Source: Pelagomonas calceolata | Taxonomy: Eukaryota | DNA: 64,000 bases | Assembly: GCA_918797485.1 (NCBI GenBank) | Contig: CAKKNE010000006.1 | Span: forward strand, 2,914,001 to 2,978,000 | Reading direction: 5' to 3' | Shown: piece by piece, positions 4,276-52,677 of the stretch | Layout of the letters: each line of letters starts with the position of its first letter | Position numbering within the stretch: the stretch's first letter is position 1 | Notes under the pieces: generated by a model | What the model saw: the letters and a program-made list of their open reading frames with translations, nothing else | What the model was told of the DNA's origin: nothing | Databases searched by the model: none | Made by a program: the position numbers and the translations under genes

Positions 4276-4296
4276 CTAGCGGCCGTAAGACACTAG
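4276..4296 (-). promoter_or_regulatory. CTAG-bounded 21-bp upstream motif
   Basis: Reverse complement CTAGTGTCTTACGGCCGCTAG, identical to the copy at 16198; ~125 bp upstream of ATG 4421. Confidence 0.65.
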
Positions 4297-16197: not shown

Positions 16198-16218
16198 CTA
16201 GTGTCTTACGGCCGCTAG
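16198..16218 (+). promoter_or_regulatory. CTAG-bounded motif in a divergent promoter
   Basis: CTAGTGTCTTACGGCCGCTAG between the CDK (-) and hydrolase (+) starts. Confidence 0.65.
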
Positions 16219-29180: not shown

Positions 29181-30461
29181 ATGCTCCTCCGCGCCGCCCT
29201 CCTCGGCCACCTCGCACATGCCCTCGTCGCCCCGCCGCGCCTCATCAGGCCGCGCCTGCACCTCGCTTCAACCACAACCGAAACCAAGGGCGACAGTACA
29301 GTAGAGACGCTCGCCCGCAGCGTGCAGATTGGTGCTGTGGGCGGCACCATCATCGCCGGGTTCCGCAAATGCGTGGACACGTTGCATGGGGACGTCTTCT
29401 TCAAGGGTTTGAGTTTTGACGTCTGCGCCAAGGACCCGAAGTTCATCCTCGGGCCCGTTATTGGCGCGCTGATCGTCGGTAAAGCGCTGCAGGGGGGCAA
29501 GACCGTCGCACAACTCAAAGACGTCACACTGCGGAGAGAACCGCTGAAGAAGCGGGACCAGGCGACGCGCGGCGCCGCGGCTGCCTTGACGCTCGGAAGC
29601 GGCTGCTCTTTGGGTCCGGAGGGGCCCTGCGTCGAGCTGGGTGCCGCGACGGGCCAGTGGGCGGCGTCCCAAGGCGGCAAGCCAAACGCGCTGGCCGCGG
29701 CCGGCGTCGCCGCCGGCGTCGCGGCAGGTTTTGATGCCCCTACCGCTGCGGTAGCGTTTGCCTTGGAGTCTGATACTAAAAATGCTGATACGACGGCCGC
29801 GGTGTCCGCAATTACGGCGGCGGGCGTCGCGTCCTACGTCTCGCGCGCTCTGTTAGGTGTTCCTAGCACCACTAGAAAAGGCAGCAAAGGGCTCGCAGCA
29901 GTCGTGACGAACTGGAAACTGACAGATGTGGGACCCCTCATGAGCGTGGCGCAAGATGTTGTCATAGCCTCCTTCGTCGCAGCGGTCTTCGCCAAGGCCT
30001 TGCGAACGAGCGCCGACTTGTTCAAGAGGGCGCCGTCCGTCAACGACTCGTTGGATGCAGCTAGAGCCGCGGCCATCACCGGTGCGATCACTCTAGCGGT
30101 AGGTTCGCCCATGATTCTGTTCTGGCACTCGGCGCCCTTTAAAGCTGCCTTAGCCGGGTCGTTGTCGCGGAACCGCGTGCTGACGCTGGCTGCGGCGAAG
30201 GTCGCGGCGACTGGTGCTTGTGTCAGTTCGCCCCTGGTCGGAGGCCTCTTCGCACCCACCCTAATCCTGGGCGCGCTCGGCGGCGCGGCCGTGTCGCCGA
30301 CCGTCGCGCGCTACGCCGCCGCGGCCTGTCTCGGGGCCTTTTTCGGCACTCCCGTCACCGGAGCACTATTGGTCGCGGAACTGCTCAAGGCGCCGGCGCT
30401 GGTGCTGCCTTCATTTATTGCCGCGGTGCTCGCGCGGGCGCTGCTGCAGCGGGCGGAGTGA
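29181..30461 (+). CDS. CLC-family chloride channel/transporter, divergent, probably plastid-targeted (CLC-e-like)
   Basis: SLGPEGPCVELG, AAGVAAGFDAP and GGLFAPTL motifs; presequence AHA-LVAP. Confidence 0.85.
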   Translation: MLLRAALLGHLAHALVAPPRLIRPRLHLASTTTETKGDSTVETLARSVQIGAVGGTIIAGFRKCVDTLHGDVFFKGLSFDVCAKDPKFILGPVIGALIVGKALQGGKTVAQLKDVTLRREPLKKRDQATRGAAAALTLGSGCSLGPEGPCVELGAATGQWAASQGGKPNALAAAGVAAGVAAGFDAPTAAVAFALESDTKNADTTAAVSAITAAGVASYVSRALLGVPSTTRKGSKGLAAVVTNWKLTDVGPLMSVAQDVVIASFVAAVFAKALRTSADLFKRAPSVNDSLDAARAAAITGAITLAVGSPMILFWHSAPFKAALAGSLSRNRVLTLAAAKVAATGACVSSPLVGGLFAPTLILGALGGAAVSPTVARYAAAACLGAFFGTPVTGALLVAELLKAPALVLPSFIAAVLARALLQRAE

Positions 30462-31132: not shown

Positions 31133-33364
31133 TCACCACCCGTTCGCCGCGTGGTGCCGCAGCATGCGGTCGAAGGCCGACCGCGCCTCGTGCACAGTAT
31201 ACTCCTGGAGCGGGTCGCGGCAGTAGCGGCGCTGGAGGTCGACGCGCAGCGGCCCCGAGCGCCCGCCCGGCCCCGTGGCCGTGCGTATCAATTGCGACGT
31301 CGTGTCGAGGAAGTTCGCGAACACCGTGTGCAGGATCGCCTCGACGTTTAAGGACGGGTTCCACGACCCGGGCGATCCGGAAGTTGTCAAAGCTTCGATG
31401 CAGATGGCCCCGCCGGCGGTCACGTGGCCCGTGTACCAGCAGAAGCGCGGCGAGACGCAGCGCAGGAAGAACGGCCGCGTCGGGTAATCCGAGGGAAACG
31501 TGATCTCCATGCGGATCGGAACGCGCAGCTGCGCCAGGTCTCCGTTGAGATCACGGCCAGCCGGGCAGTCACCGTCGAAGTCCGCGACGGAAAAGCGCCA
31601 CGTAGTCGCCGCGTCGCCGACGAGTTCCAGATCATGAACGCGCGGGGCCGACGCCCACTTCCGCAACGACTGGAACTCGCTCATGATGCGAGGAACCCCG
31701 GTCTTGCCCAGCCACTTCGGCGGCGCGCCCGGGGGACCTTGAGTCCGCTGGGCCTTCGCGGGCGGCAGCTCCGGCGGCGGGGGCGGCTCCGTTCGCGGCG
31801 CGGGCGTCACGGGCCGCCGCGCACTTTTCAAGGCGTCGACGCGCGCCCGGACTTCCCGATCAAACGCCGGCGCGAGCGTGTTCTCGCCAGCCGCGTCGCG
31901 CGCCTGCAGGGCCTCCCCCCGATACACGAACAGGAACCGCGTCGCGACCGCGTCCTCGTCGGGGACCACCCAGATGTTGGCACTCTTGGTAATTCCAGGA
32001 ACTTCAGCCACCTCGCACAACGCAATAATCCTCAGGTCCGGCGACCCGAAGAAGGAATCGTTGAACTGCGGCGTCTCGGGTTCCGGAGCCGCGGCGCCGG
32101 CGCGTCCCGGAAGCGCGCCGCGGTGCTGGCGCCGGGCGGACATGGCGTAGCGAATAGAATACGACAGAGACGTCGAGACATACACGCCAGCCCCGTGCGC
32201 GGCGCCGTGGAGCTGCAATTTCGTGCCCGACGCCGACCGCAGGCCGGATCGCAAGATACAATGCCAATTTTCGGCCGGCGAGCCGTGCCACGCGAACTTG
32301 CTGCCGTGCCGCGCCTTCAAAGCCGCGAACCTAGCTTGCCTCGCCGGCGGCTGGCTCAACATAATAAACTGGCGGCACGTTGCTTCCGGCGCGATGCGCT
32401 CGAGCAACCGCATATTCGGCGGCAGCGCAACCAAATGAGCCTTGTTCGACGTCATGATCCAGCGCAGGGCCGCCGGCGCTTGCTTATCGACCTTGAGCAA
32501 AGCGCCCTCCACCGCCGCGAAGCCGGCGGCCGACTGGCCGTCGTTCCGCGCCGTCTCGTGGATGCGCTCGAAGGACGGGAAGCGGTCCAAAATCTTCGCC
32601 GCGGCGGCCGCGCCGACGCTCGTGCCGTCGAGGACGCAGGGCGGCTGCAGGATGTCCGCCGCGCGCCGCGACCGCGCGGCGAGCCGAGTCGTCGCGACGA
32701 GCAGGTCGAGGACGTCGGCGCGGGCCGCGAGGCACGTCGCGCCGACGAGCAGCTTCCCAAAGGTCTCGAGCTGGTGGGCACACAGGGGCCGCCCGCATAC
32801 CGACGGCAGGATCGAGGCTTCTCCGAACGCTAGAGGGGCATCACATATTGCACAGACGTCCGCTAAGGAGCCCATTCTCTGATTTGCGTAGGCGAGCGTT
32901 GCGTAAAGCAAGCCCTCGGTATCTCGTTGTCGTTTGTGCAGGGGCGAGCGCCAAAAAGCCTCCAGCAGCCGTTCGACCTGCCGCCCGACGATGCAGCCTT
33001 CGGGGGCCGTGACTGTGATGCCAGCGTCGCAGTAGCCGGACGCGTACTGCGTCGCGCCACCCGAGAACACGAGCTTTGCGGAGAGCGGCGCGGTCAATCC
33101 CCAAGCTTGCCGTGTCTCCGCCGAGGCTTGCGACCGCGTCGGATCAATTTTGAGGGTCACGATGAGCGTCCGGCTCCCCTTCGTCGTCGACCGCTCCGCG
33201 CTCTCGTCGCCGAAGCGCGCGCAACACCGGGCGACGTCGACGTCGAGCTGGTCGCCGGCGTCGGCTACCGGGTCGGTCGACGCTTCGGATTCGTACGCGT
33301 AGTCATCTTCGGACTCCTCTGCTTCGTCATCGCTGGCGCTGCGGAGGTCCTCGACGTCGGCCAT
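31133..33364 (-). CDS. PARP6/8-like mono-ADP-ribosyltransferase fused to a UBE2Q-like ubiquitin-conjugating domain
   Basis: CAICD...PSVCGRPLC zinc motif; FAWHGSPAENWHCILRSGL...HGAAHGAGVYVS and IWVVPDEDAVATRFLFVY; C-terminal FPSDYPTRPFFLRCVSPR...GHVTAGGAICIEALT. Confidence 0.88.
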   Translation of the reverse strand: MADVEDLRSASDDEAEESEDDYAYESEASTDPVADAGDQLDVDVARCCARFGDESAERSTTKGSRTLIVTLKIDPTRSQASAETRQAWGLTAPLSAKLVFSGGATQYASGYCDAGITVTAPEGCIVGRQVERLLEAFWRSPLHKRQRDTEGLLYATLAYANQRMGSLADVCAICDAPLAFGEASILPSVCGRPLCAHQLETFGKLLVGATCLAARADVLDLLVATTRLAARSRRAADILQPPCVLDGTSVGAAAAAKILDRFPSFERIHETARNDGQSAAGFAAVEGALLKVDKQAPAALRWIMTSNKAHLVALPPNMRLLERIAPEATCRQFIMLSQPPARQARFAALKARHGSKFAWHGSPAENWHCILRSGLRSASGTKLQLHGAAHGAGVYVSTSLSYSIRYAMSARRQHRGALPGRAGAAAPEPETPQFNDSFFGSPDLRIIALCEVAEVPGITKSANIWVVPDEDAVATRFLFVYRGEALQARDAAGENTLAPAFDREVRARVDALKSARRPVTPAPRTEPPPPPELPPAKAQRTQGPPGAPPKWLGKTGVPRIMSEFQSLRKWASAPRVHDLELVGDAATTWRFSVADFDGDCPAGRDLNGDLAQLRVPIRMEITFPSDYPTRPFFLRCVSPRFCWYTGHVTAGGAICIEALTTSGSPGSWNPSLNVEAILHTVFANFLDTTSQLIRTATGPGGRSGPLRVDLQRRYCRDPLQEYTVHEARSAFDRMLRHHAANGW

Positions 33365-33603: not shown

Positions 33604-33624
33604 CTAGTGTCTTACAGCCGCTAG
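33604..33624 (+). promoter_or_regulatory. CTAG-bounded motif in a divergent promoter
   Basis: CTAGTGTCTTACAGCCGCTAG, identical to the reverse complement of 52657-52677. Confidence 0.65.
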
Positions 33625-34394: not shown

Positions 34395-37300
34395 TTACTC
34401 GACGGCTGGCCGGGGCGGCGTCGTGCCGGGTTCCGCGTACCTTTGGCGTCTAGCCGCCTCCATTTGGCGCGCGCGTGACGGGGCCGGCGGCGGCGAAGCC
34501 GCGAGGCTTGCAGCGCGGCGCCGCTCCTCGGCCGCCGCGGTGAGGCGCGACGCCGCGAGCGCCCGATTTTCGTCGTTGCTCGCCTGGTCCGCCCGGACGT
34601 GCCGGACGATATCCGTGAATGTCGGCCGCGTCGCGGCGTCGTTCGCCCACGCCCGGCGCATGACGGTGGCGAGCGGTCCGGGCATCGCCGGCGGCACTGG
34701 CGGGCGCGCGTGCTCGAACACGACCTTGAAGCTAATTTGGAGCGGCTTGTGGCCCGCCCAGGGCACGCCTCCGTCGAAAAGTTCCCACAGCACCATGGCG
34801 TACGAGTAGACGTCGCTCTTCTCCGTGAACACGTTATCCTTGAGGAGCTCGGGAGCCATGAAAGACGGTGTCCCTGAGAGCCCGTCGCCGTTCTTTGTGG
34901 TCAGCGTCGTCGCCGTCTTGAGCGCGTCGCAGCGGCTGAGCCCAAAATCCGACACTTTTGCCCTCGCTTCCTTGGTCAGGAGGCAGTTGTGGCTCTTCAG
35001 GTCTCGATGCTGCACGCCGCACGAGTACAGGAATTGCATGCCCTGCGCGACATCTGCGGCCCAGAGGCACTTCAGATCGGCCCCCACCTCCGCTGTCCCG
35101 TCGAGTGCCTCACGGATGGATCCACCGGGCATGAATTCCATGACGAGGCCGAGGAACGAAGAGTCCGTCGTGACGACGCCCAGCACCGCAACCGTCCGCG
35201 GCGAGCGGAGACGGATCATGATCGAAAGCTCCTGCGCGAACTGGGAGATCATTTGCTGGCGCTTAACCGCGGTCAGCGACGCCAGCGATATCTTCTTGAG
35301 GGCCACGGCCTCGCCCATGTACTCGCCTTGATACACGTCGCCTTGCGCGCCGCACGCCACCGGCTCTGCCGCGACGCGGTCGAGCGTCAGCTCGTGGCTG
35401 ACCAGGTTGGTTCGTTTGAGAGAGCGAGCCGACTCCTTCCGCGTCTTTTTCGCCATCGACGCGCCGAGAGCAGCGACCTCTTCCTTGATGCTGTCGAGCC
35501 TGGCGCCGTCGCGTTGCACTCTCGCCTCGACGGCGTTGATGCGCCGCTCGCCGCTCTGTGCGGCGGCCACGATGAATTTCTCGTTGCGTCGCGCCCCGGC
35601 CTGGACCGCAGCCAAAAGCGTCGCGTCTCGCCGCGTGCTCGACGCGACTGCCCCCGAGACATAGTCGAGCTGCGCAGTGGTGCGTTGCGCCCTCGCTTCT
35701 GCAGCGACTAGCAGCTCCTCGTCACGACGCGCGCTCGCGCGGACGGCCGCGAGTATCGTGGCGAGCTGCTGTTCGTTGCTCCGATCTCGTAGCATTTTCT
35801 TCAGTTGCTTGTCCACTTTGGCGAAGCCCTCCCTGACTTCGAGTCGGAACTCGCCGAGCTCGCTCGTCAATTCGTCGACCGGCACGTGGGCTTCTATGGC
35901 GACGGACGTGATCGCGACGGGATCCTCCGCGAGGCTCCGCGCCGCAGCTTCCGCGGTTTCGCCGGTCTCGCGAACGCGCGCCTTGACGAGCTGGTCGATA
36001 GAACGCTCGATCTGGTACGTGTGTTCCATGAGTCGCGCGTCCGCCGCGAGGCGGTATAAATCGCGAAACGAGTCCATGGCCTGACAGATCTCCTTGTCGA
36101 GGCGGCCCAGCGACCTGACGTGGCCTTGCATCGTGAAGGCGCGCTTGAGCCAGCCCTTCTTCCCAAACGTTCGCATTGCATCGTTGAACTCGACGAGCAG
36201 ATTCACGAGGTGTCGCATCTTCGACTCGACGAGCGCCCTCTCGTCCTCGAGGCGGGCGACATTCTTCGCCATCAAGTGGGCCGCGTCGAGCACGTCGCAG
36301 ACGCGCTTCGCCGCAATCAGGACGTCATCCGCCATGTCGCCGAACTCCACCGCCGAACCGAGGCAGCCTTTGACGGCCCTGCAGAGCTCCCCGACGAGAG
36401 GGAGACCGCTACCCGCGGAGAGCAGGGCGTTCGCGAGCGTGAGGCCGTGCTGCACGACCGTCGACGTGTCCTTGTGACGGGCGAGCATCGCGGAGCGGCC
36501 ATCGCCTGACTCGTCCCCGAGCTCCACGTCGACGCCACTGCGGGTCATCTGTTTCGTATTGGACCCTTTGCTGCGGCGGTAGAAGAAAAATGCAGCCGCG
36601 GCCAGCAGCAGCACGGCGCCCGCGGCGGCACCGCCACCGGCGACCATCACGCTGTTGTCTTTTCTGCCGCCGGAGCTCTCTGCTGTCTCGGTTGTAGCGA
36701 GCGCGCTGGCGAACGTGGGGCGCGGCGTCGGTGCGGAGACGGTCTTGACCGTGGGGTTGCCGGGTGTCGCCGTCGGGGCAGTTGTCGGGTGTAACGATGG
36801 TCGAGGCACCGGCATCGGCGTCGGCGCGCCGTCGACCGCGGTCGCTGCCATGATCGTGTCGTAGTCATTCGCGGCCGCCGGCGCCGTTGGCCCCACGGCG
36901 CCCTCGGCGTCGGCCGCGGTGGCAAGCGCCGTGTACAAGGCGCCGCTCTGGGCCGCGGTCGACAGATCGCTGACGACCGCCTCGGCGTAGCCCGTTGCCA
37001 TCTCCGCGCTGCCCTCGACGCGAACGGAAAACACTACCGTGGTCGTGGTCTGCTGCAGGCGCCGTCGTCGCGACGATACGACGCTAAACGCCACAATTTG
37101 GTCGGTGCTCGTGACGTAGGAGAGCGTCGCGACGAGCGCAGTCTTGACGATGGTCTCGAGCGTCGTGGCATCCACGGTCACTTCCGCAAGGACCAGCTGA
37201 GAATTAATCACGACTGACTCCGCCGTCGGCGACAGCGCCGGTGTGGCCGTTGGTACCGGATTCAAGAACTCACCGGAGGTCGGCGCCGGCGCCGGCTGAG

Positions 37301-38591
37301 ATGTTGGCGCATTTGCATCGAAGACGTAGGCCGCGCCCGAGCCGCTGCTGTAGTATTGTTCGGCCCCGACCACGATGGTGGTGCCGTCAATCGCCACGGA
37401 GAAGCCGAAGCCGAAGCCGTCGTCCGCCGCGGCGTCGGAAGCCGTCAGCTTGGCCACCTGGTCGTACGTGGCGCCGCCGTCGCTCGTGCGGTAGACGTAG
37501 GCCGCGCCCGAGCCGTCGTTGTAATATTGGTGGGCCCCAATCACGATGGTGTCACCGTCAATCGCCACGGAGCGGCCGAAGTAGTCGTACGCCGCAGCGT
37601 CGCTGGCCGTCAGCTTGGCCAGTTCGACGTACGTGGCGCCGCCGTCGGTTGTGCGGAAGACGTAGGCCGAGCCCGAGCTGGTGCCGGCGTCGTCGTCTTG
37701 CCGGGCCCCGACCACGACGGTGCCGCCGTCGATTGCCACGGAGTAGCCGAAGTTGTCGTACGCCGCAGCGTCGGAGGCCGTCAGCTTGATCTTCGTGTGC
37801 GTGATCCAGCCGTCGGTCGTGCGGAAGACGTAGACCGCGCCCGATCGGCCGGTGTGATATTGGTAGGCCCCGACCACGATGGTGTCACCGTTAATGGCCA
37901 CGGAAATGCCGAAGTAGTCGTCCTCCGCGGCATCGCTAGCCGTCAGCTTGGCCAGTTCGACGTACGTGGCGCCGCCGTCGCTCGTGAGGAAGACGTAGGC
38001 CGAACCCGGGCCATTCCATTCATAGGCTCCGACCACAATAGTGCCGCCGTCGATCGCCACGGAGTAGCCGAACTGGTCACTCTCCGCGGCGTCGGAGGCC
38101 GTCAGCTTGGCCACCTGAGCGTACGTGGCGCCGCCGTCGGTCGTGCGGAAGACGTAGGCTGCGCCCGAGCCTGTACCGTCGTCGTCGTCGTAGGGGGCTC
38201 CAATCACGATTGTGTCGCCGGAAATTGCCACGGACCAGCCGAACTGGTCACTCTCCGCGGCGTCGGAGGCCGTCAGCTTGGCCACCAGGCCGTACGTGAC
38301 GCCGCCGTCGCTCGTGCGGAAGACGTAGGCTGCGCCCGGGCCGCTGTTGTAGTACTGGTGGGCCCCAATCACGATGGTGTCACCGTCAATCGCCACGGAG
38401 CGGCCGAAGTGGTCGTCCGCCGCGGCGTCGCTGGCCACGAGCTTCGCGACCTCCCCGAAGTTGGTGGACAGCCGCCGATCAGCCCGCGCGACGAGCGGTG
38501 CTGTGAGGAGTGGCCCATTGCTAGGCTCAAGAACGCGCAGCCCGTGATGAGTGTGCAAGCTTACCAGCAGGCATAACTGGTAGCATCTCAT
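34395..38591 (-). CDS. Receptor-like kinase: signal peptide, 7 FG-GAP repeats, P/T-rich stalk, TM, MLKL-NTD-like helical bundle, coiled coil, TKL kinase
   Basis: Seven KL(T/V)ASDAA..D.FG.SVAI.G.T(I/V)V.GA units; TM ...AVLLLAAAAFFFY followed by RRSK; kinase VALKK, HRDLKSHN, SDFGLS, GTPSFMAPE and SDVYSYAMVLWE. Confidence 0.88.
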   Translation of the reverse strand: MRCYQLCLLVSLHTHHGLRVLEPSNGPLLTAPLVARADRRLSTNFGEVAKLVASDAAADDHFGRSVAIDGDTIVIGAHQYYNSGPGAAYVFRTSDGGVTYGLVAKLTASDAAESDQFGWSVAISGDTIVIGAPYDDDDGTGSGAAYVFRTTDGGATYAQVAKLTASDAAESDQFGYSVAIDGGTIVVGAYEWNGPGSAYVFLTSDGGATYVELAKLTASDAAEDDYFGISVAINGDTIVVGAYQYHTGRSGAVYVFRTTDGWITHTKIKLTASDAAAYDNFGYSVAIDGGTVVVGARQDDDAGTSSGSAYVFRTTDGGATYVELAKLTASDAAAYDYFGRSVAIDGDTIVIGAHQYYNDGSGAAYVYRTSDGGATYDQVAKLTASDAAADDGFGFGFSVAIDGTTIVVGAEQYYSSGSGAAYVFDANAPTSQPAPAPTSGEFLNPVPTATPALSPTAESVVINSQLVLAEVTVDATTLETIVKTALVATLSYVTSTDQIVAFSVVSSRRRRLQQTTTTVVFSVRVEGSAEMATGYAEAVVSDLSTAAQSGALYTALATAADAEGAVGPTAPAAANDYDTIMAATAVDGAPTPMPVPRPSLHPTTAPTATPGNPTVKTVSAPTPRPTFASALATTETAESSGGRKDNSVMVAGGGAAAGAVLLLAAAAFFFYRRSKGSNTKQMTRSGVDVELGDESGDGRSAMLARHKDTSTVVQHGLTLANALLSAGSGLPLVGELCRAVKGCLGSAVEFGDMADDVLIAAKRVCDVLDAAHLMAKNVARLEDERALVESKMRHLVNLLVEFNDAMRTFGKKGWLKRAFTMQGHVRSLGRLDKEICQAMDSFRDLYRLAADARLMEHTYQIERSIDQLVKARVRETGETAEAAARSLAEDPVAITSVAIEAHVPVDELTSELGEFRLEVREGFAKVDKQLKKMLRDRSNEQQLATILAAVRASARRDEELLVAAEARAQRTTAQLDYVSGAVASSTRRDATLLAAVQAGARRNEKFIVAAAQSGERRINAVEARVQRDGARLDSIKEEVAALGASMAKKTRKESARSLKRTNLVSHELTLDRVAAEPVACGAQGDVYQGEYMGEAVALKKISLASLTAVKRQQMISQFAQELSIMIRLRSPRTVAVLGVVTTDSSFLGLVMEFMPGGSIREALDGTAEVGADLKCLWAADVAQGMQFLYSCGVQHRDLKSHNCLLTKEARAKVSDFGLSRCDALKTATTLTTKNGDGLSGTPSFMAPELLKDNVFTEKSDVYSYAMVLWELFDGGVPWAGHKPLQISFKVVFEHARPPVPPAMPGPLATVMRRAWANDAATRPTFTDIVRHVRADQASNDENRALAASRLTAAAEERRRAASLAASPPPAPSRARQMEAARRQRYAEPGTTPPRPAVE

Positions 38592-38798
38592 GATATATCA
38601 GGCTGCCCGAGAGTGGGCGCGACGGCCCATCCTGCACCGCACGTGCGTGAGGAGCGCTGCGCAGCTTGGGACGCCGGGTTCGGGTTTTACACGGCGCGCG
38701 ACCCCTAATCGCTCCCGCTGGGCCGACGGCACGGGTCTTCAATCGATGCGAGCGACTCTCTCCCTTAGGATACAACCTTACACACGACAAGAGAGTCA

Positions 38799-41700
38799 TC
38801 ACACCCACAGCGTCAGCCCGCACCAGTGCCGCCCCAGCGACGCCGGGTCCGTCGCGAGGTCGACGAGGACCCTGACCTGGTCCTCGACACTCAACGTCGC
38901 CTGGTGGCGCAAGGCGTGGCGGGCGCTGTTCTCCAAGCCGGCGACGACGGTCCGCGCGCGCTGGGCCATGTCCGCCTCGAGCATCGGGTTCCCCGCGACC
39001 TCGCGGCTCAATAAGTGGCAGGGGTTCGCCCCGAAGAGTTTCCCGCGCGCCGTCGCGACGCGCCGCTCGGGCGCCGCCGCGGCGCCCGCCTCGACGTCGT
39101 CCGCGTCCCTATCTAAAGACGCGTCGTGCTTCGCGCCCCGTAACCAGTCGAGCACGGGCTCCCGCACGAACGCCTCCAACAAGCCGAGGAGAGGCGCCCG
39201 CGCCCGCGGCTGCCGCAGCGTCCTGAATGTAGACTCGAGATGAGACGTGAGGACGCGCCGCGCGCCCACGGGCTCGAGGGGCGCTTCCAACTCCCGCGTC
39301 AACCGGAACGGAATCAACTCCGGCACGGGCAGCAGCGCCCCCGTCCCAAACGAGTAGCCCAGATCGATGTGCACGAGCGCGCCGTCGCCACTTAATAGGA
39401 AGTTGTCCAAATGGCGGTCGCCCAGACCAACAACATAACCGGCAGCACACGTCGCCGCCAGGGAATACGCGTAGGTCCGCCGCTTCGCGAGGAACGCCTC
39501 CGATGAGACAGACAGCTTTTCCAGATGGCGTTTCAAACCACCAGACGTCGCGTCGAGCACCTTGCGCGCGGCGAAGAGAGCTTGAGATGCTTCTTGCGGC
39601 TTGGCCCTTAGTCTCTTCTTCGTGAACGCCTTCGACGCCTTGTCCGGGGCTCCTAATAACATATCATCCCTTGAACGCTGCGCCCGGATCCACAAAGCCT
39701 CGCCCTTCGTGCTGTCGCCCATTCCAAATTCTCTGAGTAATATAGACTTGACGGGCGGCGACGCGGGCACCCATTCCACCAAACCAACCCTAGGAGATAA
39801 CGGCGCGACGGCGTACGTCCGCAGTGCCGCACCAACACCGCGGCAAGACCCTTTCAGAGTGGTAGAGATGGCCTCGAACAAAGCCTCGACGCGGGCGTCG
39901 TTCCGCAGATCTTCCCCACCTTTGACGAGGAAATTTAATCTGCGGGCGTCGGTCGCGTGCACCGACAATTTTTTAGGAACCTGTTTCGATGGTAAAATGT
40001 CCAAAGACGGCTCGAAGCCCGCTACGACACCACCGGGCACCTCTAACAACGACCGGGCGCCGTCGAAGTCGCGCAGCCAGCCCGAGTACCTGTCGAGGGG
40101 ACACGTCGGCCTCACGGACTTCTTTGGTTGTTTTGCTAGATCTTGTCTTAGACCGTCCAAGCCTTTCGCTAGCTTCGTGTGGTCGTCCGTCGAGAACAAA
40201 GCGTCGGCCTTCTTCCTCAAAGATCTCACAAATGCTTCCCGAACAAACGCTTCGTTCCTGGAACCGATGCCCGTACCCACGAGAGGCCACTCGTCACCCA
40301 GCGTCGTCTTCTTGAGTCTAGACCAGGCCGCCCGCGCTCTTACCAAATCACCATTCCGAGCGGCCTTGCGCGCCACATCTAAACCTTCCGCGAGGCGTTT
40401 CTCGGGCTCGTGCAGCCCCTCGCACGCCAGCACGAACGCCTCCGCAATATCATCTCTACAAGCGTCGCGGGCCGCTCTTATGAGCGTCGCGTCCGTCAAT
40501 TTCTCGGAAGCGAAGCGCAGCGCGTCCCTTACTGACGATGGAGAAGAGCGCGCCAAGCGCTCGACGACGGGCCTTACGGCTTCGCAGATCGCTTTGGCTC
40601 TCGCATCGTTCGAATCACCATAAGCTGATAATAACGCGACGAGCTGGTCGCCGTGGTCTTTGAAGGAGGCGGAAGGCGCGTCCTCCGCGGCCGCCCGGAA
40701 CGCCGCGGCGCAAGCTTCGGCGTGAGGACTTCCCAACAAAGCGAGCACTCTCGGAATGGCTCTTGAAGCGTAGGACGCATCTAGCGCCGTCGCTCTGATA
40801 TAAGTCTCGACAGCAGACGCGGCGCACCGTTGCGTCGCCGTCGACGCGCTGCCGCCACCTGCTAGTTTAGCCAGGTCGCACACGACCTCCTTGGCCTGGC
40901 GCCGTCGTTTCGTCGGCTGGTCCTCATCCTCCTCATCCTTGGAAAGGCGGTCTCGGCGCAGCATCTCGTCGCACAAATCCGCAAAGGCGAAAAACGCCTC
41001 CGCGCTCGACACTTGAATCGCCGCAGTTCTCAGGTCGTGGGCCGCATTGTTCGCTAATTCTACGGGTGTCGCATCGCCCTCGGAACACTTCCCCGCATAA
41101 CGGGCGTCGGCCCACTCCAGCGCCAACGCGCCTCGCCTCACTAGATTCCGTTCCACTTTATAAGCCACGGCGAAGACCTTGTCGCATTTCTCGGGCTCGT
41201 TGCTCGCACAGTAATCCCTAGCTAGAGCTAACGTGTAGTCGGCCTTGAGCTGGTCGGCGCCTTGCGGGGCGGTACTGAAGAAGGCATTTTTGCGGAGACA
41301 CTGCGTCGCCACGTCTGTTATTGATGCATTCAGTGCTAAGGACGCGATATCCAGCCTTGTCAAATCTAAAACGGCCTCTAACGCTTGGTCGCTTTGGGCT
41401 AGTACTTTTCGCGTACATAACGACGCGACCCAGGAACTACAGGGCGCGTCCGCGGGCGGCTTGGGTGACGTGCGCCACCTTTCTCCAGCACCGCTGGATG
41501 GGGGCCGCGCGACGGCGTCGACGTCACCCAATATGCTTAAATCGGCGACGCACTTCGCCAATGCAGTACCTTGCGACAGGGACGCCAGCGCCTCCGCTAC
41601 TTGTTCAAAACCAGCGTCGACGGCCTCCGCCGCGCCCGCACGATCACCATCTCGTAGTAAACGTATAGCTACTGAAGCGGGCGCCTTCCTCAGCAATTCG

Positions 41701-44700
41701 GCCCGCGTCTCAGGCTTTTTGAGCTGCACCCTTAGTTTTTCCTCGACGTCGTCGTCGTCAATTAACGCACCGGCGAGAGCCAACGAACCCGGATCACTCG
41801 CCATTCGAGCCACGTCGTCCCACTCGCCTAAAGCTTTCGCCGCGTCGAGCTGCCGCTCCTTGTCATCCTCAAAAGCGGCAAACGCTTCTCTTAAACGCCC
41901 CGCCCGCAACAGTGACGCGCCCTCATTATCGTCCAGTGACGCGTTGATGTCCTCGTCGACCTTCGCGTAGAGTGACGCTAAAGCGCTTTTTGTAGGCGTA
42001 TCTAGCGGCAGGGCTCTCGCTTTGCGCGCCCAGGGCCCTTTCGTCGAGGAACCTGTGAGTGCACACAAGCGGGCCTTTTCGATCGTCAGAACGCCCGGTT
42101 CCAACGCGTTCGACGCTAACGCCGTTGAAGCTATTGATGTAGAGGGCACTAAGACCGCAGGGTCTTCACTTTTCTCTGATGCATCGATGCAGGCAGCATG
42201 GGCTTGATGGAGAGCGCTCCCTAATTCATGAGTGGGACTCTCCTCGCACGACCGCAAAGCGTTCTCCAGACCCACGACGACTCGTCGACGCGTAGCCAGC
42301 GGTCTAGCGTTGTAAAGTGTCCCAACGAGCTGCCCGAACAGCGACGCCGCTATTGATCCATCCCGTAACGACAAGGCCATCAATGGCCGGACCACCTCCG
42401 CCAACGACAGCCCCACGTTGGGCAACTCGCCCTGGGCATACGACCGGTACATGACGACCTTCTGCCGCGCTGGTTTCTTCTTTTTTGATACAGTATCTTC
42501 CGCAAACCGCACCGTACGTGCTGCAAGCCTACGCGACAGCTGGGCCTCGTCTTCTAGCACGTCGCCCGTCGTCTTCGGAGGGACGACATGGTCAGCAGCG
42601 AACAACAACTGCGTCTGCAGGCGCACTTGCCTTCCCTGGGCCCTTGGATCATCTTCGTCGACCTGAGTCGCATCGTATAAAGAATCTTTCTGTGTGGCCT
42701 TCACGGGACCAGAACCGAACATTTGGGTCGATAACGAGCTACACCGTTGGGACTTGGCGTTCTCCACGACGGAAAAGGCGTTTACGAGCGAGGACCCTTT
42801 CCCTTCGAGGTCCAGCTGCAGGTCGCAGCCCTTGTCGCCGCCCAGATCGTCACAGAGCGGCTGGTTCCAACTCGGGGAAGATGATGATGAAGCTAATAAC
42901 AAAAATGCGGCGAATCTATGGGGCCTCGCATCGGGCGCGATGAACATCTCCCCGAGAGCACCATCCAGCCTCGACTGCGCCGTCTCACCTAAACGACTAC
43001 GCCAGTAGTCGTAGACCCTTCTACGAACGCCCTTCCTCTGTTCCACCACTTGTTCTTTCTCCGCGTCCACGTCGATAACTTCCGGTGGTGGCGGCGGGTT
43101 CGGATCTCGCTCGAGCATGACCACGTCCTCGTCCGGCGTCTCTTGGACCGGTGGAGGCGGCTCTTCCTCCTCCACAACAGCTTCGTCCTTGGGCGCGTCG
43201 AGCATGCCCTCGCCGTCTTGATCTCCTAGACCTCTGATTAACGCTGCTCGCACTCGTAATGCCGTGGGATTCTCATTTTTCGAGTGTGAAGTAGGAAAGT
43301 AGACGTCGTGCAATGCTGCTAGGAGATCGTAGCCCAACGATCTTACCTGCACGTCTGGTGATGCCGCAAGTAGAGCTTCGAGCGACGCGGGCCCGCCGTG
43401 GACCACTGAAGCCACTAACTGCTCGTTCCTAGACAAAGCTTCACTTCTACTCACGAGCAATTGCAAAGCTCCGAGCTGCACTAATGGTTTGGCGGTCTTC
43501 GTATCTTCCTGAGAATCATCATCAAGAGGCAGCTCCGGCGTCACGCGTTCACTATTGGCCAAGGCCTTCGGCAAGATGCCTTCGAGCTGCTGCAGCAACT
43601 CGTCGTCGGAAGAAAAGCATTCGGAAGACACACCGCCCACGTCCAGCGCCCGCAGCAGCTCGAACGCTTGTTTTGCCGACTTGCCCTCGTGCACTATTTC
43701 ATTTAAACTCCTACAACTTCGTAAAGCGTGGCGCCGCGACAGGAACGTAGGCACGGCCAACGTACACCTCGACACGAGCGACGCGAAGCGCCCGTGGCGG
43801 TGGTGCGAGCCCGCTTTACTTGTATCTGTGACGTCTTCTACGGTGTCCTTGCACTTGCGTAGCAGCGCATCGAGCGACGTCGCTTTCAGAGCTGCGGCGA
43901 GGACCTCGCCGGCGGCCTTGTATAACGTGGCGTGCCTTACTTTGGCGCACTCTACCACGAGTTCTAAAGTCTTGGGCGCCTCTGGGAGTAGATTCGGTCT
44001 TAAGGTTAGTATGGCGTTGACGAGGGACAATCCAGCTAATCGAGGCACCAGGTTCTTGGCCAACAGAGTTTTAGATCCACCTAGATCTTTGGGCGGCGTC
44101 AGGAGCTTGTTGATCGGTCGGCTCCAGTCGAAAAGTTCCCCATCGAACAATGTTGTGGAGTAGGCTGTGAGTAGAGCGTTGCACAAGGCTAGGTTCCGCT
44201 TTGTTGTGTCCTTATTACTACCAGGGTTCGTCGGGCCTCTATCAGTAAAGTGGGGGTCGTTTTCTTTGGAGTAGGACACATTTGCACAAAGCGTCTCCGC
44301 GATCCTTGCGATGGCTGGCGCTTCCTCTTCTGTAATGGGTGGCGCGTTCCGCTTGTCCGGTGACGTACATACGAGGAAGCGGCACGCGCTTCGTAGCAAA
44401 TGATCAATACCTTGAGTTGGTTCGGCACATAACGCTCGAGCGGTCGCTTGCGCGACAGACTTTCGTAAACACATGGCGTGCGTCCTTAAAGCTCGTCTTA
44501 AGCCACCTTTGCTCTCGACGAAGACGTTCAACACCAAGGCGAGCAAATAGATACAAGTGTCGCCTTCCGACCGATCCAAATGAGACGCTAATACTTCCGC
44601 GGACTTAGGTGTAGAGTGTTCCTTGCGCCGTACCGACGCTGGACTTGCACCTGTGGCCTTGGCGGCGTTCCTAGCGTCCACCAATGCTTTGGCCTCCAGT

Positions 44701-47700
44701 CGGGCCAATTTAGCAAGACCAGCAACTAACGGAGCCATCAGAGCCGTGCGATTGAGGGGATGCGCCACGATCTCGATGGCCTCCTCGTGATCATCGTCAT
44801 CTGAATCGTCCGTGTCCTCCTCGAGCAAGGCCGGATCCCCCGCGTCGACGTCCCACAAGGAAGCTTCTACCGGAGGCACGGCCTCGACGTCCTCCAAATC
44901 TTCTTCTTCCTCTCTAGTAGAGAAGGCGTCCTCCTCCTCGTGATCATCGATTTGCGACGCCTCCAAGCCTAATGAAGAGTGCCGCAGCATGGTCCTCGCG
45001 AATTGAGATAATCCCGCGTCTTCGTCTTCACAATTTTTTTCGACCACGTTCGCTCTCATACAACCGATGCGGTCGCGTCGCATGCTTAATTTACGTTGAT
45101 GACCTCGTGCCGTCGTCATGCTCTCGAAGCCGCAGCCCACGGTCAAGGTGATAGCGTCTGGCTGGAGAGCTAATAGTAACGTCTCTTGCCGCTCCGGAGC
45201 CAGCACGATCTTGTTTAGATGGAGCGGGTTGTCCTGCGACGCCTCGGCTAACACTACCGCTAGCCTATAAGCACTCTTCACGACTCTGGGCGAGACGTCA
45301 GTAGTACTTTTTAGTTTCGAGACCCAAAGGCGCAAAACGCGCTTCCGCAGGGCCTTCGCGTCTTGCCCATAAGCGCTTAGTACTGAAGAAGAAGCGTCGT
45401 CCATGACGCAGTCCTCGAGACCACCTCGTGACAACCCAGGAAGCGCGTCGAAGGCCTGTTCCAAGATGCATGCTGCAGTTTCACCAGTCGCGACCTCTAC
45501 TTGAGAAGCATTCGTCTCTAACGACTTCTCGAGCGCCGTCAAGGCCAAGGACACGACGGGTCTTGATGAAATACCATCGTTACTATCTCTGATACTTTTA
45601 AGGAAGACGCTTAGCGTACGGCCGTCGAAGCGTTTTAGTGACGGCACTAAGCCGTACTCACAGATGAAGCGGCAGACGTCGGGCCACTGCTTCGATTTAC
45701 GATTCAATGAGTTTTGTGGAGCCTTCTTCCCGAGCAGCCCGCAGTGCGCCGCTAAATCGTCTAGAAAAGCTACTGATGACTCTTGGTCGTGATCATATGA
45801 AGACTGTGCAGAACCGACGGCCGCCGCCCGCAACCCTCTCCTGATTGATCTACCGAGCGTGTCCTTGAGAGCCGGGATTCTCCTCGAGAGTAGAGCTAGC
45901 AGTCGCGGCGCGCCGCAGGACCCGTAGGCCGCGCCCAACGCCGAGGCGTCGTTCCGGGCGCGGCTTTTACTAGGTTCATCAAATTCGTTCGAGGCCCAGT
46001 CTTCAAAGCGAGCGGGTAGGGTCCTCGCCAGGCGCGCGTCTAAAGCTTTGAGGACCTCCGCGTCGTCCTCTATACAAATTTCATCGTCTTCCTCAAAGGC
46101 GTCGGTCTCGTCGCCGTCGTTCGTCCGTTTACGTCTACCGGGGGCGTTCCTCGTCAGCCCTCCGACGAAGTGCGGCACTAATCGAATGGCCTTGTCGGCC
46201 GCGGCGTCGTCGTTACTTGCTAGAGCGTCTACGACACAGGTCCGCGCTTGGTTCCGCGCCTCCAGTCGCTTCTGTCTCCCTCGAAAGCCAGCACCCAACA
46301 ATCTTGTAGCCAGGCCTAGTTTCTGCGACGTCGGCCACGCATCCGCATTTACGGTGAGTAGAGGCGCCGCGAGGGCCGCTCGACTAATCCCTCTAGTTCG
46401 CGCCCAGTCGCCACAGGCGACGACGAAGGGCGCCTGTCCCGCGCGACATAGCTTTTCAGCAGTATCAGACCAATCTTCGGATAATGTACCCGTACCATTG
46501 CACACGAGCGCCTCATACACCGCCTCGGGATGCCGGTCGCACGCCTCACCGGTCTTCAAATCTTTGATGACCAGAGGGAGCAAGCCCGGCGCTTCCGGTT
46601 CACCCAACAACGGCAGACCCATGGCTACGGCCAATCTCAGAGCGCCGTCGTCCTCGTCGTCGTCGTCGTCGAGACCCTCGAAGAAGTTCCTCGCGAGGAG
46701 TCGTGCAATATCTTCTGACGGTGCCGCTTGGTCGAGAGCATCTGTTTTGTGGAGAGCGTCGTACAACCTCAACGCGCCGTCCCGCCTCCGTTGCGCCGCT
46801 CGCGACGGTGTCGACAGTCGCGCCTCCTCGGTGTCTTCTCGGGACGACGAATGCGTCGGCTCCGAGCCTTCGGAGTCTACGGACCAGTGCGGCGCCAAGG
46901 CTTGGAGTGACGTGGCGATGGCCTTCCTTGTTAAATGTATCGGACACCTTTTCAGCAGTTTCGCGACTGATAGCGGTAACTGTGTACGTACCTCGACGTC
47001 GTCCTGCGACGACGGCAAGGCGCCTCGCCGATCCGGTGATACAATAGCATCCACGAAGATGCGTAACAGGTCGTAGAGGCCCGACTGTGCTACTATATCT
47101 TCGTCGAGTTGTGAGGCGAGGTCGCAGGAGTGTCTCAGAGCGTCCCTCCTCAAGATGCGCCGTCGTTCTTCACACACCTCGTCGTCGTCGTCGATCATGG
47201 CACTCCCTCGCTGCCTTGAACCGACATGTTGTACTAATTGTATAGAAATAGCAAGGGCGTCCGCCGCCCACGCCCCATCGATCACTTCAGCCTTAAGGAA
47301 GGACCCGACGGCGTGCACGCAAGCGACGGCCTTCGCTAATGATTCCGAGTCGTCGCAGTCGACTGGGGTTTGAGGCCAGAGCACTTTTTTCGCACTCGGA
47401 GCGTCGGGCAGCTTCTGCCGGTAAAAGGAACCGAGGTCGCCACTTACGAGCGGCGCCAACTTAGCGAGCGTGTACCACGTCCTCCTTCTACAAGCGTCGT
47501 CGGGGTGGGCCGCGCTCGCCATGAGCTCGTCGCATAGAACGCCTATCGAGGCCGGAGGCGCCCTATTGCCAACGGTAGCATCCATTAACTTCGCGTCGTC
47601 CCGCTTTCTCGCAACATGATGTCTAATACCTTCCGCGAGGCGATCCGCCGCCGCGGACGCCGCGCGCGTGGCTGCCGCGCCGGGTCCACCCGAAGAAGAC

Positions 47701-50700
47701 GTCTCGACCGCTTGTAGTGAAGCTCTGAGTAAATGCAGGCCGAACCTCGATAAAATAAGGGAATGAGCCCGCACATGTCTCGCCAACTTCCCGAGCGCCA
47801 ACGCGGCGCCTAATCTTCTGGTAGCATCTCTCTGCGTGAGGTCGAACGCGACCCTTCGCAGCACATGGGCCAAAGCATCAAACCCCTTGCCCGTCGCAAC
47901 ACCACTCATTTCTTCCCGCACTTCGGCCGGTCGCATCTGTTTACACGTCCAATTGACGAACTCCGCGAGGGCCTCGGCGGCTTGTGCTCGTTTCGATGCC
48001 TGGTGGCCAGCTAGCGCTTCGAACAACGCGTCTACGAGGTAGCGCGCCGCCCTCGTCTTCTCGTTCTGTTCCCGGCAGTCCCTATTTGAGAATAATCTAC
48101 AACATTGTAATAACAACTCCCGGAATAGAGCTCGTATGATCGAATCTGAGTGTGATGCTAGACTACAGACGTAGGGCCAAACGCGGACATAGATCGAGTC
48201 TTCGAGGTTCGCACCTTTGCCGTGCTGGTTGGGATGGGACGTCGTCCTCCCAATAGCTACTAGGACGAGGGCGTGCAACGCTTCCGATGCTAGTAAGCGC
48301 GTCTGGCGCGGTCCCGAGCCGCACGCTATGACCCCTAAACGATTCAGTAAGGCACCATCCAATCGCAGCGATAGCGTCCCCAGAGATATAGTTAAAGGAG
48401 CGCCGAGCATTCTAGAAGATTCAGTTCTTTGGGAGAACGCTCTCACTGCTTCCCCGCCACAAGAAGATAAAAAGCGGACGGCCCTTCTAGATAAGTAACG
48501 AGCGGCACTATCAGAGACGTGCGGGTCCGCTCTTTGTGCAGCGAGCGCCATTCGTCGAGCGCGAGCGCGCGCTTGCGCACTTTGGGCCTTGTCGATCACT
48601 ACACTAACGTCTCTGGACCGAGCCGCGACGGCGTACCTCCCGATTTCCGGCAGCACCTTCTCCAACACGTCCTCGGTGAAGAACTCATCGCTAGCATCGT
48701 CGCGCCACGTCACCACGGCATCAAACGCTCTGGAAGCTGTGGGTCGGTGCGCACTACCTAGCCGCAACGCGGCACCAAGCGCCGGCGCCAACACAGCTAG
48801 CTGGCCCGTCCGCACCTCTAGAGGCGCTGACAGTACGACTCGACAGGCACACTCGAGCAACTCGTCGCGAAAGTCGCCAACCCTATGAGCCGTGTCCCGC
48901 GCGAATTTCCTCGCTGATCTTAGGAATGCGTCCTCGTCGCCCGGCGTCAAGGAGCATTGCGTGCCCGCTCGGATAGCCAACGCACCCAACCGATACAGTG
49001 AAGAACACCTTTCATGTTTCGACGCGCGATCGACCACGACTCGCAATAGCTGTGAAGCCCAGGGCGCAAACGAATCTCCTGTATCTGCGACGAAGGTCTC
49101 CAGAAAGGAAGCTAAATTAATGAGGAGCTCCTGGTCGAACTCGTTTTTTGGCCTGTGTGGCACGGACGCCGTCGCGAGACGCGTAGACTCTCATGTGATA
49201 CCGCGTCAGGTTCAAGTTCATTTTTCACGCTGAGTCAGCACCGCATCTCGTCCTCCAACATTCGCTCTTCGTATCTCAAATCTAATCGCCGGAGGATCTC
49301 CAATGAGGCGCTTAGTAGAGCATCATACAACACGTCGGACTGGGACGAGGCGATGACGTCGCGCCAGAGCTGCGCGCACCTTCTAAAAACGGGCGGTAGC
49401 GTTGAGTCTTCATCCGGCCGTTTATGCTGTATGGACGCGACCTGTACCGCGTCCCTGCAGACGACTCTGAGTGACGCGCGGCCGCCTTTCAATGCTGAAC
49501 AAGCTTTGACTAGGGATGCTAAACCGTCGACGAGGTACTGCCTCGCTCGCGCGTTCTCCCCATACAACGCACATTGGTCCGCGTGCGCGCCCACGCACCT
49601 TCGAGCTCGTTGGGCGAGAGCTTGTAAAGCTGCTCTCGGTCGCTCTGTCTGATGAGAAGTAACGAGTGAGGAAGACGCATGGAGCGCCGCACTACGAACT
49701 TGTAAAGCGTCCCAGTGCGCGAGCCTCCGTCGGACCTTGTCCATTTCACCTTGCAGAGCTAGGTCCTTGTCTCGCCGCTCGTTGTCCTGCGCATCACAGG
49801 CATCGGCACAAGCGTTGGCCGCCTCCATGAGCCTTGCGTAATCTACGGACGAGGCGGGCGCCGCCGCCGCGATGCTACGTAACGAAGCCGCCCGCACTTT
49901 CGGGTTCACGTCCCGACAGCCCGCGTCGAGCAACGCAAACACGGGGCTCCAGTCACCTCGTTGTTGTAGAGCCAAGGCATGTAACGTTTCGAAGAGAGCC
50001 ATCGACGCGTGTTTCGCGACGAGCTTCGGCGGACCTTCCTTCATGTCGGGATGGACCGTGGCCGCGAAGTGGAGGGGTTCATATGAAGTCATCGGTTCTG
50101 AAGGCAGCGACGGTGCCAGTAGGGACGCCCTTCTACGGAGAAACCGCAGCGCCTTGGCGGGCGCCTCGTACCGCGTGAACACTTTTTGGAACGGCACGGC
50201 GTACCTTTCTAGGAGCGTCAGGATGGCAGGGGCGCCTATCTCTGCCGCTTGTGAAGCCCACGCGTCGTTGCCACACAAGTGCTCCAATGCGGCCAATGTA
50301 GAGCCGGAATCTTTACCGGTGTCCTTCTGGAGGTCCAACTTGCATATCCGTAGGAGGGACGCGCCCTGCTCGTCCCAGGGGGATGAGGACCGGTCGTCGA
50401 TCGCTAATGGAGGCGCCGGCCGCTCTGATGCGATGAGCGTCGCCGCGAGCTTCATGGCCTCGCCTTTAATACCCTTGGCCTTTTCTCCTGATAAAGAATC
50501 GACGCACTTGTGGGACAAAGAGCGCCACTGCTCGCCACTTACAACTCTCTCAGCATCCCTCTTGAAGAGCTCTCTGAGAGCACTCGCCGCGGCCTGCCGC
50601 GCCGTCGCGTGGCCCCGGCCCTCCAATACCAAGCGTAGGGACTCGAACGCCGTCAGGGTGTGGGGCCCGGCGCCTCTTTTCTTGATGTACTTGGCCATCT

Positions 50701-52656: not shown

Positions 52657-52677
52657 CTAGCGGCTGTAAGACACTAG
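52657..52677 (-). promoter_or_regulatory. CTAG-bounded motif upstream of the cyclophilin gene
   Basis: Reverse complement CTAGTGTCTTACAGCCGCTAG, ~180 bp from ATG 52475. Confidence 0.65.

Follow-up and report, generated by a model that had tools for sequence, protein, structure and literature searches.

A transcribed, single-exon receptor kinase gene

The window analysed here is a 64,000-nucleotide stretch of the Pelagomonas calceolata genome (GenBank assembly GCA_918797485.1, contig CAKKNE010000006.1, positions 2,914,001 to 2,978,000 of the forward strand), and all coordinates below are positions within it. On its minus strand, at 34395..38591, lies an open reading frame (ORF) of 1398 amino acids with no internal stop, which encodes a predicted surface receptor kinase carrying a helical bundle, probably of MLKL type, between the membrane and the kinase. 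The components that a first-pass annotation had read from the letters, namely seven FG-GAP blades, a stalk with an SRRRRL motif, a single transmembrane (TM) helix, a helical domain and a kinase, were all recovered by Pfam, motif positions, hydropathy and AlphaFold2.

The gene is transcribed and intronless. In four PolyA raw-read runs (three of them from one sample; 6-12% of each run), gene-strand RNA extends from about 34550 to 38640, shows no splice joint and, together with the open frame, defines the whole gene as a single exon. Five RNA molecules terminate at 38647, likely the 5' end of the receptor transcript. A 10-codon upstream ORF (38598-38630, minus strand) falls within this likely 5' leader, in frame with the receptor gene and ending two codons before its ATG. 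In three of the four runs RNA depth drops to 0.2-0.6 over the Pro/Thr stalk; over the last ~50 codons (34395-34550) it is zero, and no read in these runs singly spans both propeller and kinase. Contigs over 34806-37092 from X7 and X10, two runs presumed to be RNA, have ends identical to the DNA contig, may represent DNA and add little, and metatranscriptome rows X15-X20 (word share 0.23-0.30) do not enter the evidence. A fusion of two genes by an intron or an assembly artefact is ruled out, as the RNA shows no joints and the same module occurs in other genera.

All features of the receptor described below lie on the minus strand. Residues 1-17 (38541..38591) form a probable signal peptide, as annotated at first pass; a hydrophobic N-terminus is indeed present, and it is weak, with a best 10-residue Kyte-Doolittle (KD) value of 1.88 against 2.8-3.1 in three relatives. 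Unlike it, the N-termini of P0003, P0064 and P0117 are clearly hydrophobic. Seven FG-GAP_2 repeats follow at residues 45-428 (37308..38459; Pfam PF14312, seven stretches, E 2.3e-123), predicted to fold into a 7-bladed beta-propeller whose seven KL[VT]ASDAA blade starts are distributed over residues 50-381. The description of this ectodomain as integrin-like holds for the repeats and goes no further: Pfam reports FG-GAP_2 alone, without an integrin domain such as the thigh or calf of integrin alpha, and a PDB sequence search returned no solved structure matching the propeller. Moreover, integrin alpha ends in a short cytoplasmic tail, whereas the cytoplasmic part of the receptor comprises ~725 residues with a kinase.

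The stalk domain (residues 460-560, 36912..37214) displays SRRRRL at residues 507-512 (37056-37073), and RRRL-type motifs also stand upstream of the TM helix in related loci, e.g. L001, L003, L008, L010 and L021. The motif is possibly an extracellular processing site, presumably cleaved according to furin/kexin specificity. Many paralogue RNA reads match the segment 37048-37164 of this stalk with consistent differences and loose ends, and because they fit only there, a more highly expressed gene probably shares the SRRRRL stalk. A Pro/Thr/Ala-rich spacer (residues 561-647, 36651..36911) leads to the TM helix (residues 648-671, 36579..36650), which is followed by RRSK; only the 19-residue segment at 648 reaches KD 2.04, the highest value in the protein, the runners-up attaining at most 1.63. 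Between TM helix and bundle lies a linker of ~30 residues (36492..36578) that is unconserved in a comparison with the 26 aligned family members having a TM helix just upstream of the bundle (TM rows), in which it spans 6-73 residues (median 33.5) with no common motif. We considered whether the linkers have a di-acidic export motif in common and dropped the idea, since only 5 of the 26 carry one.

At the other end of the cytoplasmic part, residues 1076-1331 (34599..35366) constitute a TKL-group Ser/Thr kinase (Pfam PK_Tyr_Ser-Thr, E 3.7e-52) with all of its motifs intact (VALK 1096-1099, HRDLKSHN 1195-1202, DFG 1215-1217, MAPE 1245-1248), so that the kinase looks active. The list of matching solved structures is headed by 9p9u (labelled EGFR), followed by CTR1, TNNI3K and MLKs, and MLKL is absent from the best 60 of 595. 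With an ectodomain, one TM helix trailed by basic residues and a TKL kinase, the protein thus has the layout of a single-pass receptor-like TKL kinase. A low-complexity C-terminal tail (34398..34598) completes it, and below about 34550 it lacks gene-strand RNA.

The juxtamembrane bundle is very probably homologous to MLKL

MLKL is a soluble cell-death effector in which a helical bundle with a free N-terminus is joined to a pseudokinase and switched by RIPK3. The first-pass annotation had likened the helical domain of the receptor to this MLKL/HeLo-type bundle, and family-level Pfam matches, ESM Atlas neighbours and a collinear alignment to three MLKL structures now agree with it. The domain covers residues 701-870, and two AlphaFold2 models of it are entirely helical (mean pLDDT 87.8 for model 1 and 84.3 for the trimmed core). 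Model 1 contains helices at its residues 2-30, 34-50, 56-76, 79-111, 115-121 and 129-170, of which the first (36405..36491) is an extra N-terminal helix preceding the core, MLKL residue 1 falling on model residue 31. The MLKL-like four-helix core (residues 730-852, 36036..36404), delimited by the alignment to human MLKL 6ux8 and by MLKL_N matches in the family, features a near-invariant Pro731 and a short GWLKRAF helix between h3 and h4. Helix h4 is extended as a long helix in the AlphaFold2 model and introduces a region of residues 853-1070 (35382..36035) that comprises a brace-like helix, a conserved helical segment (residues 866-935, matched by BLASTP at 38-60% in 5 of 10 tested homologues) and, judged by eye, the probable coiled coil that had been annotated between bundle and kinase.

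Compared with 48,161 chains, the core model retrieved human MLKL 6ux8 at rank 2 (Z 11.7, rmsd 2.9, 121 residues aligned), mouse MLKL 4btf at rank 7 (Z 10.7, rmsd 2.7, 100 aligned) and Arabidopsis AtMLKL3 6ka4 at rank 9 (Z 10.4, rmsd 3.8, 129 aligned), with the caveat that Z scores under ~13 in this tool may be generic for helical bundles. The human protein is matched end to end, model residues 3-124 lying on residues 1-121 of the chain, and all three MLKL structures align from their first or second residue; the NRG1.1 CC-R domain ranks 21st. First place is taken by a gamma-tubulin complex protein (Z 12.7), whose match is spread over residues 544-778. When the extra helix is included, a designed protein, two CAMP factors and GCP4 outrank MLKL, which comes fifth (Z 11.9). 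The Foldseek check proposed at first pass gave no significant match: with either model, nothing in the PDB reached E <= 0.001, and the matches listed are generic bundles with no MLKL among them. Nevertheless, the segment does not model as a plain coiled coil devoid of MLKL or HeLo similarity, the outcome named at first pass as fatal to the idea, as the predicted model superposes collinearly on the MLKL N-terminal domain in the manner of the MLKL/HeLo/RPW8 four-helix-bundle superfamily. The extra helix before h1 and the short h3/h4 helix additionally give it the layout of the BaMLKL type, as defined from the description of the fungal proteins.

Sequence comparisons point in the same direction. 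The bundle of the window receptor itself matches no Pfam family up to E 1, and a search of PDB chains by sequence and profile gave nothing meaningful. However, a search of 1.84 billion representatives yielded 174 relatives of the bundle, 150 of them listed, and in a hand-chosen alignment (A1) of the window domain with 54 mostly short matches, 29 of the 55 sequences match MLKL_N (PF22215) at E <= 0.1 (best 2.4e-6); RPW8 comes second with five, and no other family exceeds five. MLKL_N also appears in at least 9 of the 72 listed relatives of 300 residues or more, when the best five families per protein are taken. Among the relatives listed, P0082 alone passes the curated MLKL_N cut-off (27.6 vs 27), and the TM-type P0142 and P0143 match MLKL_N, NACHT_N or SesA weakly. 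The closest ESM Atlas neighbour of the bundle (0.95) is a mostly basidiomycete cluster without a Pfam family, and further neighbours at 0.93 come from Oomycota and Mucoromycota, with MLKL_N on 22% and 36% of their members, respectively. All ten best named matches share a family or clan, an agreement rate to be read with care, as the tool's figures are not calibrated on protein parts; no usable match was obtained with the TM helix and bundle together (residues 610-940). Pfam and the structure alignment have a common register that puts the MLKL start at about residues 730-734. As these lines agree on one register, none being decisive alone, we consider homology of the bundle to MLKL very probable from sequence and model. 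The receptor is not MLKL itself, because its kinase looks active and the N-terminus of its bundle is tethered: the catalytic motifs are intact, and 700 residues including the propeller and the TM helix precede the bundle.

Tethered bundles form a pelagophyte receptor family

The architecture survey suggested at first pass uncovered a pelagophyte receptor family, so the gene is not a one-off; other ochrophytes entered only as far as the relatives found. The 114 near-complete domains divide into 26 that closely follow a TM helix, 56 that begin within 50 residues of the protein start and 32 internal ones; these labels come from a hydropathy rule, and fragments are frequent among the metagenome proteins. 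The bundle-first label in particular is unreliable for metagenome proteins, as several that fall within the TM branch are pieces of TM genes (e.g. P0140, P0174, P0025). Named proteins with a TM helix and bundle come from Pelagomonas (P0003), Aureococcus (P0064), Aureoumbra (P0128, P0120) and Chrysophaeum (P0122, P0164, P0149), and complete chains of FG-GAP propeller, TM helix, bundle and kinase include P0128, P0122, P0142 and locus L009. In other TM members the ectodomain is Cys-rich or Pro/Thr-rich, and under these changing ectodomains the bundle retains ~28-35% and the kinase 41-49% identity across genera. Those TM members whose sequence includes a kinase retain the catalytic motifs: 10 of the 26 TM rows have HRDLKxxN, of which eight have DFG and one DFA, and one ends earlier.

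We built a careful tree of 79 rows after discarding near-duplicates at 80% identity along with five long-branch rows. All 17 of its TM rows fall on one side of a branch with 97/91 support (31 rows) and none among the other 48, and a quick tree of all 114 domains gives the same split (SH-aLRT 84). This fits one origin of membrane tethering, with which the tree is compatible without proving it, as it is unrooted. Outside the TM branch the bundle is combined with kinases and with ANK, TPR, LRR, Roc-COR/CHAT, SAM and P-loop domains, partners that would be typical of immune signalling modules; named members there come from Chrysophaeum and the haptophyte Prymnesium. In Chrysophaeum P0100/P0101, for instance, the bundle is C-terminal in a Roc-COR-CHAT protein and N-terminal in an ankyrin-kinase protein that has a P-loop-like motif close to its end. 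Ten of the 88 non-TM rows begin with MG and eight fit the myristoylation pattern, compared with MG at the start of 1 of 35 long ORFs in the window; P0155, P0104, P0123 and P0066, which have no TM helix, start with MGSCCCK or MGCxxS. These N-termini suggest that TM and lipid anchors replace one another among relatives, and membrane tethering ahead of an MLKL-like bundle appears to recur.

Frame breaks or insertions interrupt the bundle after KGW or h2 in P0026-P0029 and in loci L001, L015 and L021, and as the window gene runs on at these places, they suggest differences in intron presence within the family. No second bundle gene exists in the window, none of 32 pattern matches in viral contigs is a relative, and 7,990 candidates contained no longer protein matching alignment A1, which is weak evidence.

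Comparison with known bundle-kinase proteins

Statements on published work here and below refer to the available text of the cited sources. Proteins combining such a bundle with a kinase fold are known from animals, plants and fungi (PMC12881547, PMC8778642, PMC10197012). The receptor shares with vertebrate MLKL (6ux8, 4btf) the succession of four-helix bundle, brace-like helix and kinase fold, and differs in its ectodomain, TM helix, extra helix, ~200 residues between bundle and kinase, intact motifs and a kinase closer to CTR1, TNNI3K and MLK. Plant MLKL (AtMLKL3, 6ka4; 10.1101/681015) likewise has a HeLo bundle, a long brace and a kinase fold (Z 10.4-10.9 over 129 residues) but forms soluble tetramers with a pseudokinase and no receptor part. 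Basidiomycete BaMLKL (10.1101/2022.03.16.484565) agrees by description in its extra N-terminal helix, four-helix core and short h3/h4 helix, yet these domains head cytoplasmic NLRs or stand alone, and the text available describes none that follows a TM helix. Fungal HELL-kinase and HELL-pseudokinase proteins also join the bundle to a kinase or pseudokinase (PMC12881547), and Glomeromycotina have MLKL-family homologues with Sel1 repeats (PMC8778642); for neither is an ectodomain or TM helix described in the accessible portions. Conversely, the receptor-like TKL kinases of Phytophthora (PMC3019232, PMC10463195) offer signal peptide, ectodomain, TM helix and TKL kinase without mention, in the text available, of an MLKL-type juxtamembrane bundle: "MLKL" occurs in neither paper and "FG-GAP" is absent from PMC10463195. 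A survey of 67 protists reported no homologues of mammalian necroptosis regulators including MLKL and considered the pathway likely vertebrate-only (PMC7539657). In a search that covered few subscription papers, we found no publication that puts an MLKL-type bundle below the TM helix of any receptor kinase or that reports one from pelagophytes; databases may already annotate these domains automatically. The receptor is a real, expressed and conserved new architecture made from known parts.

A proposed clustering switch and its possible rivals

We tentatively favour a reading in which the protein is a single-pass surface receptor kinase whose likely MLKL-family bundle, held between membrane and kinase, acts as a clustering switch. 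Ligand binding to the propeller would cluster receptors; bundle, brace and coiled coil would self-associate, by analogy with the brace regions of plant MLKL, and the clustered kinases would phosphorylate one another and then downstream targets. The extra helix and the membrane tether are proposed to hold the bundle closed, for which reason the output would be signalling, probably in sensing or defence, and not lysis. We rank this non-lytic switch first because N-terminal tags impair killing by mouse and human MLKL (PMC7305131, PMC4716306), because in AtMLKL, whose brace mediates tetramer contacts, immunity is separable from cell death (10.1101/681015), and because death activity of bundles with an extra N-terminal helix is unproven according to the authors who describe them (10.1101/2022.03.16.484565). 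The bundle's homology, the retained catalytic motifs, the module conserved under varying ectodomains, the grouping of all TM rows on one branch and the domain partners of the non-TM relatives also speak for it. Several observations weigh on the other side. The Pro731 hairpin is as hydrophobic in TM rows (KD 0.91, n=26) as outside the TM branch (KD 0.91, n=52), the basic segment persists (+4.3 vs +5.3), and to judge from the aligned sequences the tethered bundles show no sign of lost membrane-acting features. As 8 of the 88 non-TM rows begin with a myristoylation-like motif, a tether ahead of the bundle would be normal in the family and perhaps not inhibitory. Furthermore, the MLKL-type domains tested in the cited papers (MLKL, HET-S HeLo, AtMLKL HeLo plus brace) either kill cells or target membranes (10.1101/681015, PMC10197012, PMC12881547). 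A death or ion-flux output of the bundle is worth entertaining, if somewhat doubtful, and since hairpin and basic segment are conserved behind a flexible linker, we keep both a tethered and a cleavage-released membrane output as rivals to the clustering switch.

With the bundle still tethered, clustering and autophosphorylation could open it and let the hG-h1 hairpin enter the inner leaflet, producing a lesion permeable to cations that would serve Ca2+ signalling or regulated death. The MLKL-type homology, the conserved hairpin hydrophobicity and basic segment of the TM rows, the freedom of movement given by the ~34-residue linker and the lipid-anchor-like N-termini recurring ahead of the bundle in relatives are consistent with this, as is, at the level of a fold hint, the likeness of the extra-helix model to CAMP factors in their five-helix region (Z 13.0 and 12.1, 4-6% identity). 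We nonetheless think it rather unlikely for this receptor, given the effect of N-terminal fusions on mammalian MLKL (PMC7305131, PMC4716306), a hairpin KD over 19 residues of 1.24 that is well under that of the true TM helix and may reflect core packing, and the lack of functional data on extra-helix MLKL-like proteins in the available text of 10.1101/2022.03.16.484565. A broader reading is likewise doubtful, if a shade less so: pelagophytes would possess a family of receptors uniting a variable ligand-binding ectodomain, an active kinase and an MLKL-type membrane-attack bundle in a single chain, by which an external stimulus would directly set off ion influx or necroptosis-like death in a unicellular phytoplankter. 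Release by proteolysis, in which the ectodomain would be shed and a second cut, within or next to the membrane, would set loose a soluble fragment of bundle and kinase acting like MLKL, could draw on the polybasic stalk site, the Gly/Ala-rich TM helix and the existence of soluble bundle-first relatives such as Chrysophaeum P0101 and P0121. Yet it seems improbable, as a cut at the polybasic site, which lies on the extracellular side, would leave the bundle attached, no RRRL stalk adjoins the TM helix in the FG-GAP receptor of L009, and the TM and linker sequences are unconserved. We give equally little credence to a generic helical bundle that merely resembles MLKL and serves as spacer or protein-interaction module. 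Such a bundle would explain the missing Pfam match of the window domain, the lone P0082 above the cut-off, the empty Foldseek result and the equal or higher scores of gamma-tubulin complex proteins, designed bundles and CAMP factors in a range that is possibly generic; it sits poorly with the lead of MLKL_N in alignment A1 (29 of 55, against at most five for any other family), the identical register in Pfam and structure alignment, three MLKL structures in the top nine aligned from the first or second residue, and the weak MLKL_N, NACHT_N and SesA matches of the TM-type P0142 and P0143 themselves.

An MLKL-type bundle seems to occur in many algal proteins and, in pelagophytes, to be wired directly beneath a surface receptor. 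If the bundle acts on membranes, receptor, kinase and executioner would be united in one chain, which would offer abundant marine algae a testable mechanism for Ca2+ signalling or regulated death; otherwise the receptor would represent a non-lytic use of the MLKL fold. Either outcome would inform what bundles with an extra N-terminal helix do.

Other features of the window

The upstream neighbour of the receptor, at 38799-48551 on the minus strand, is a DNA-PKcs-like gene of 3250 amino acids in one frame, and a CLC channel gene lies at 29181-30461 on the plus strand; we saw no sign of a link of either to the receptor. A single ORF at 31133-33364 (minus strand) combines a PARP catalytic domain (E 1.6e-13) with a C-terminal ubiquitin-conjugating-like domain (E 3.5e-6). 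The exact 21-base motif CTAGTGTCTTACRGCCGCTAG occurs four times in the window, where none is expected by chance: at 4276-4296 and 52657-52677 on the minus strand and at 16198-16218 and 33604-33624 on the plus strand. The copies lie outside long ORFs, each ~120-200 bases upstream of the start of a plus-strand ORF. The motif is probably common in the genome, because DNA contig depth is ~2500 in the bin of the 33604 copy vs ~170 nearby, and it is a candidate promoter element or tiny mobile repeat.

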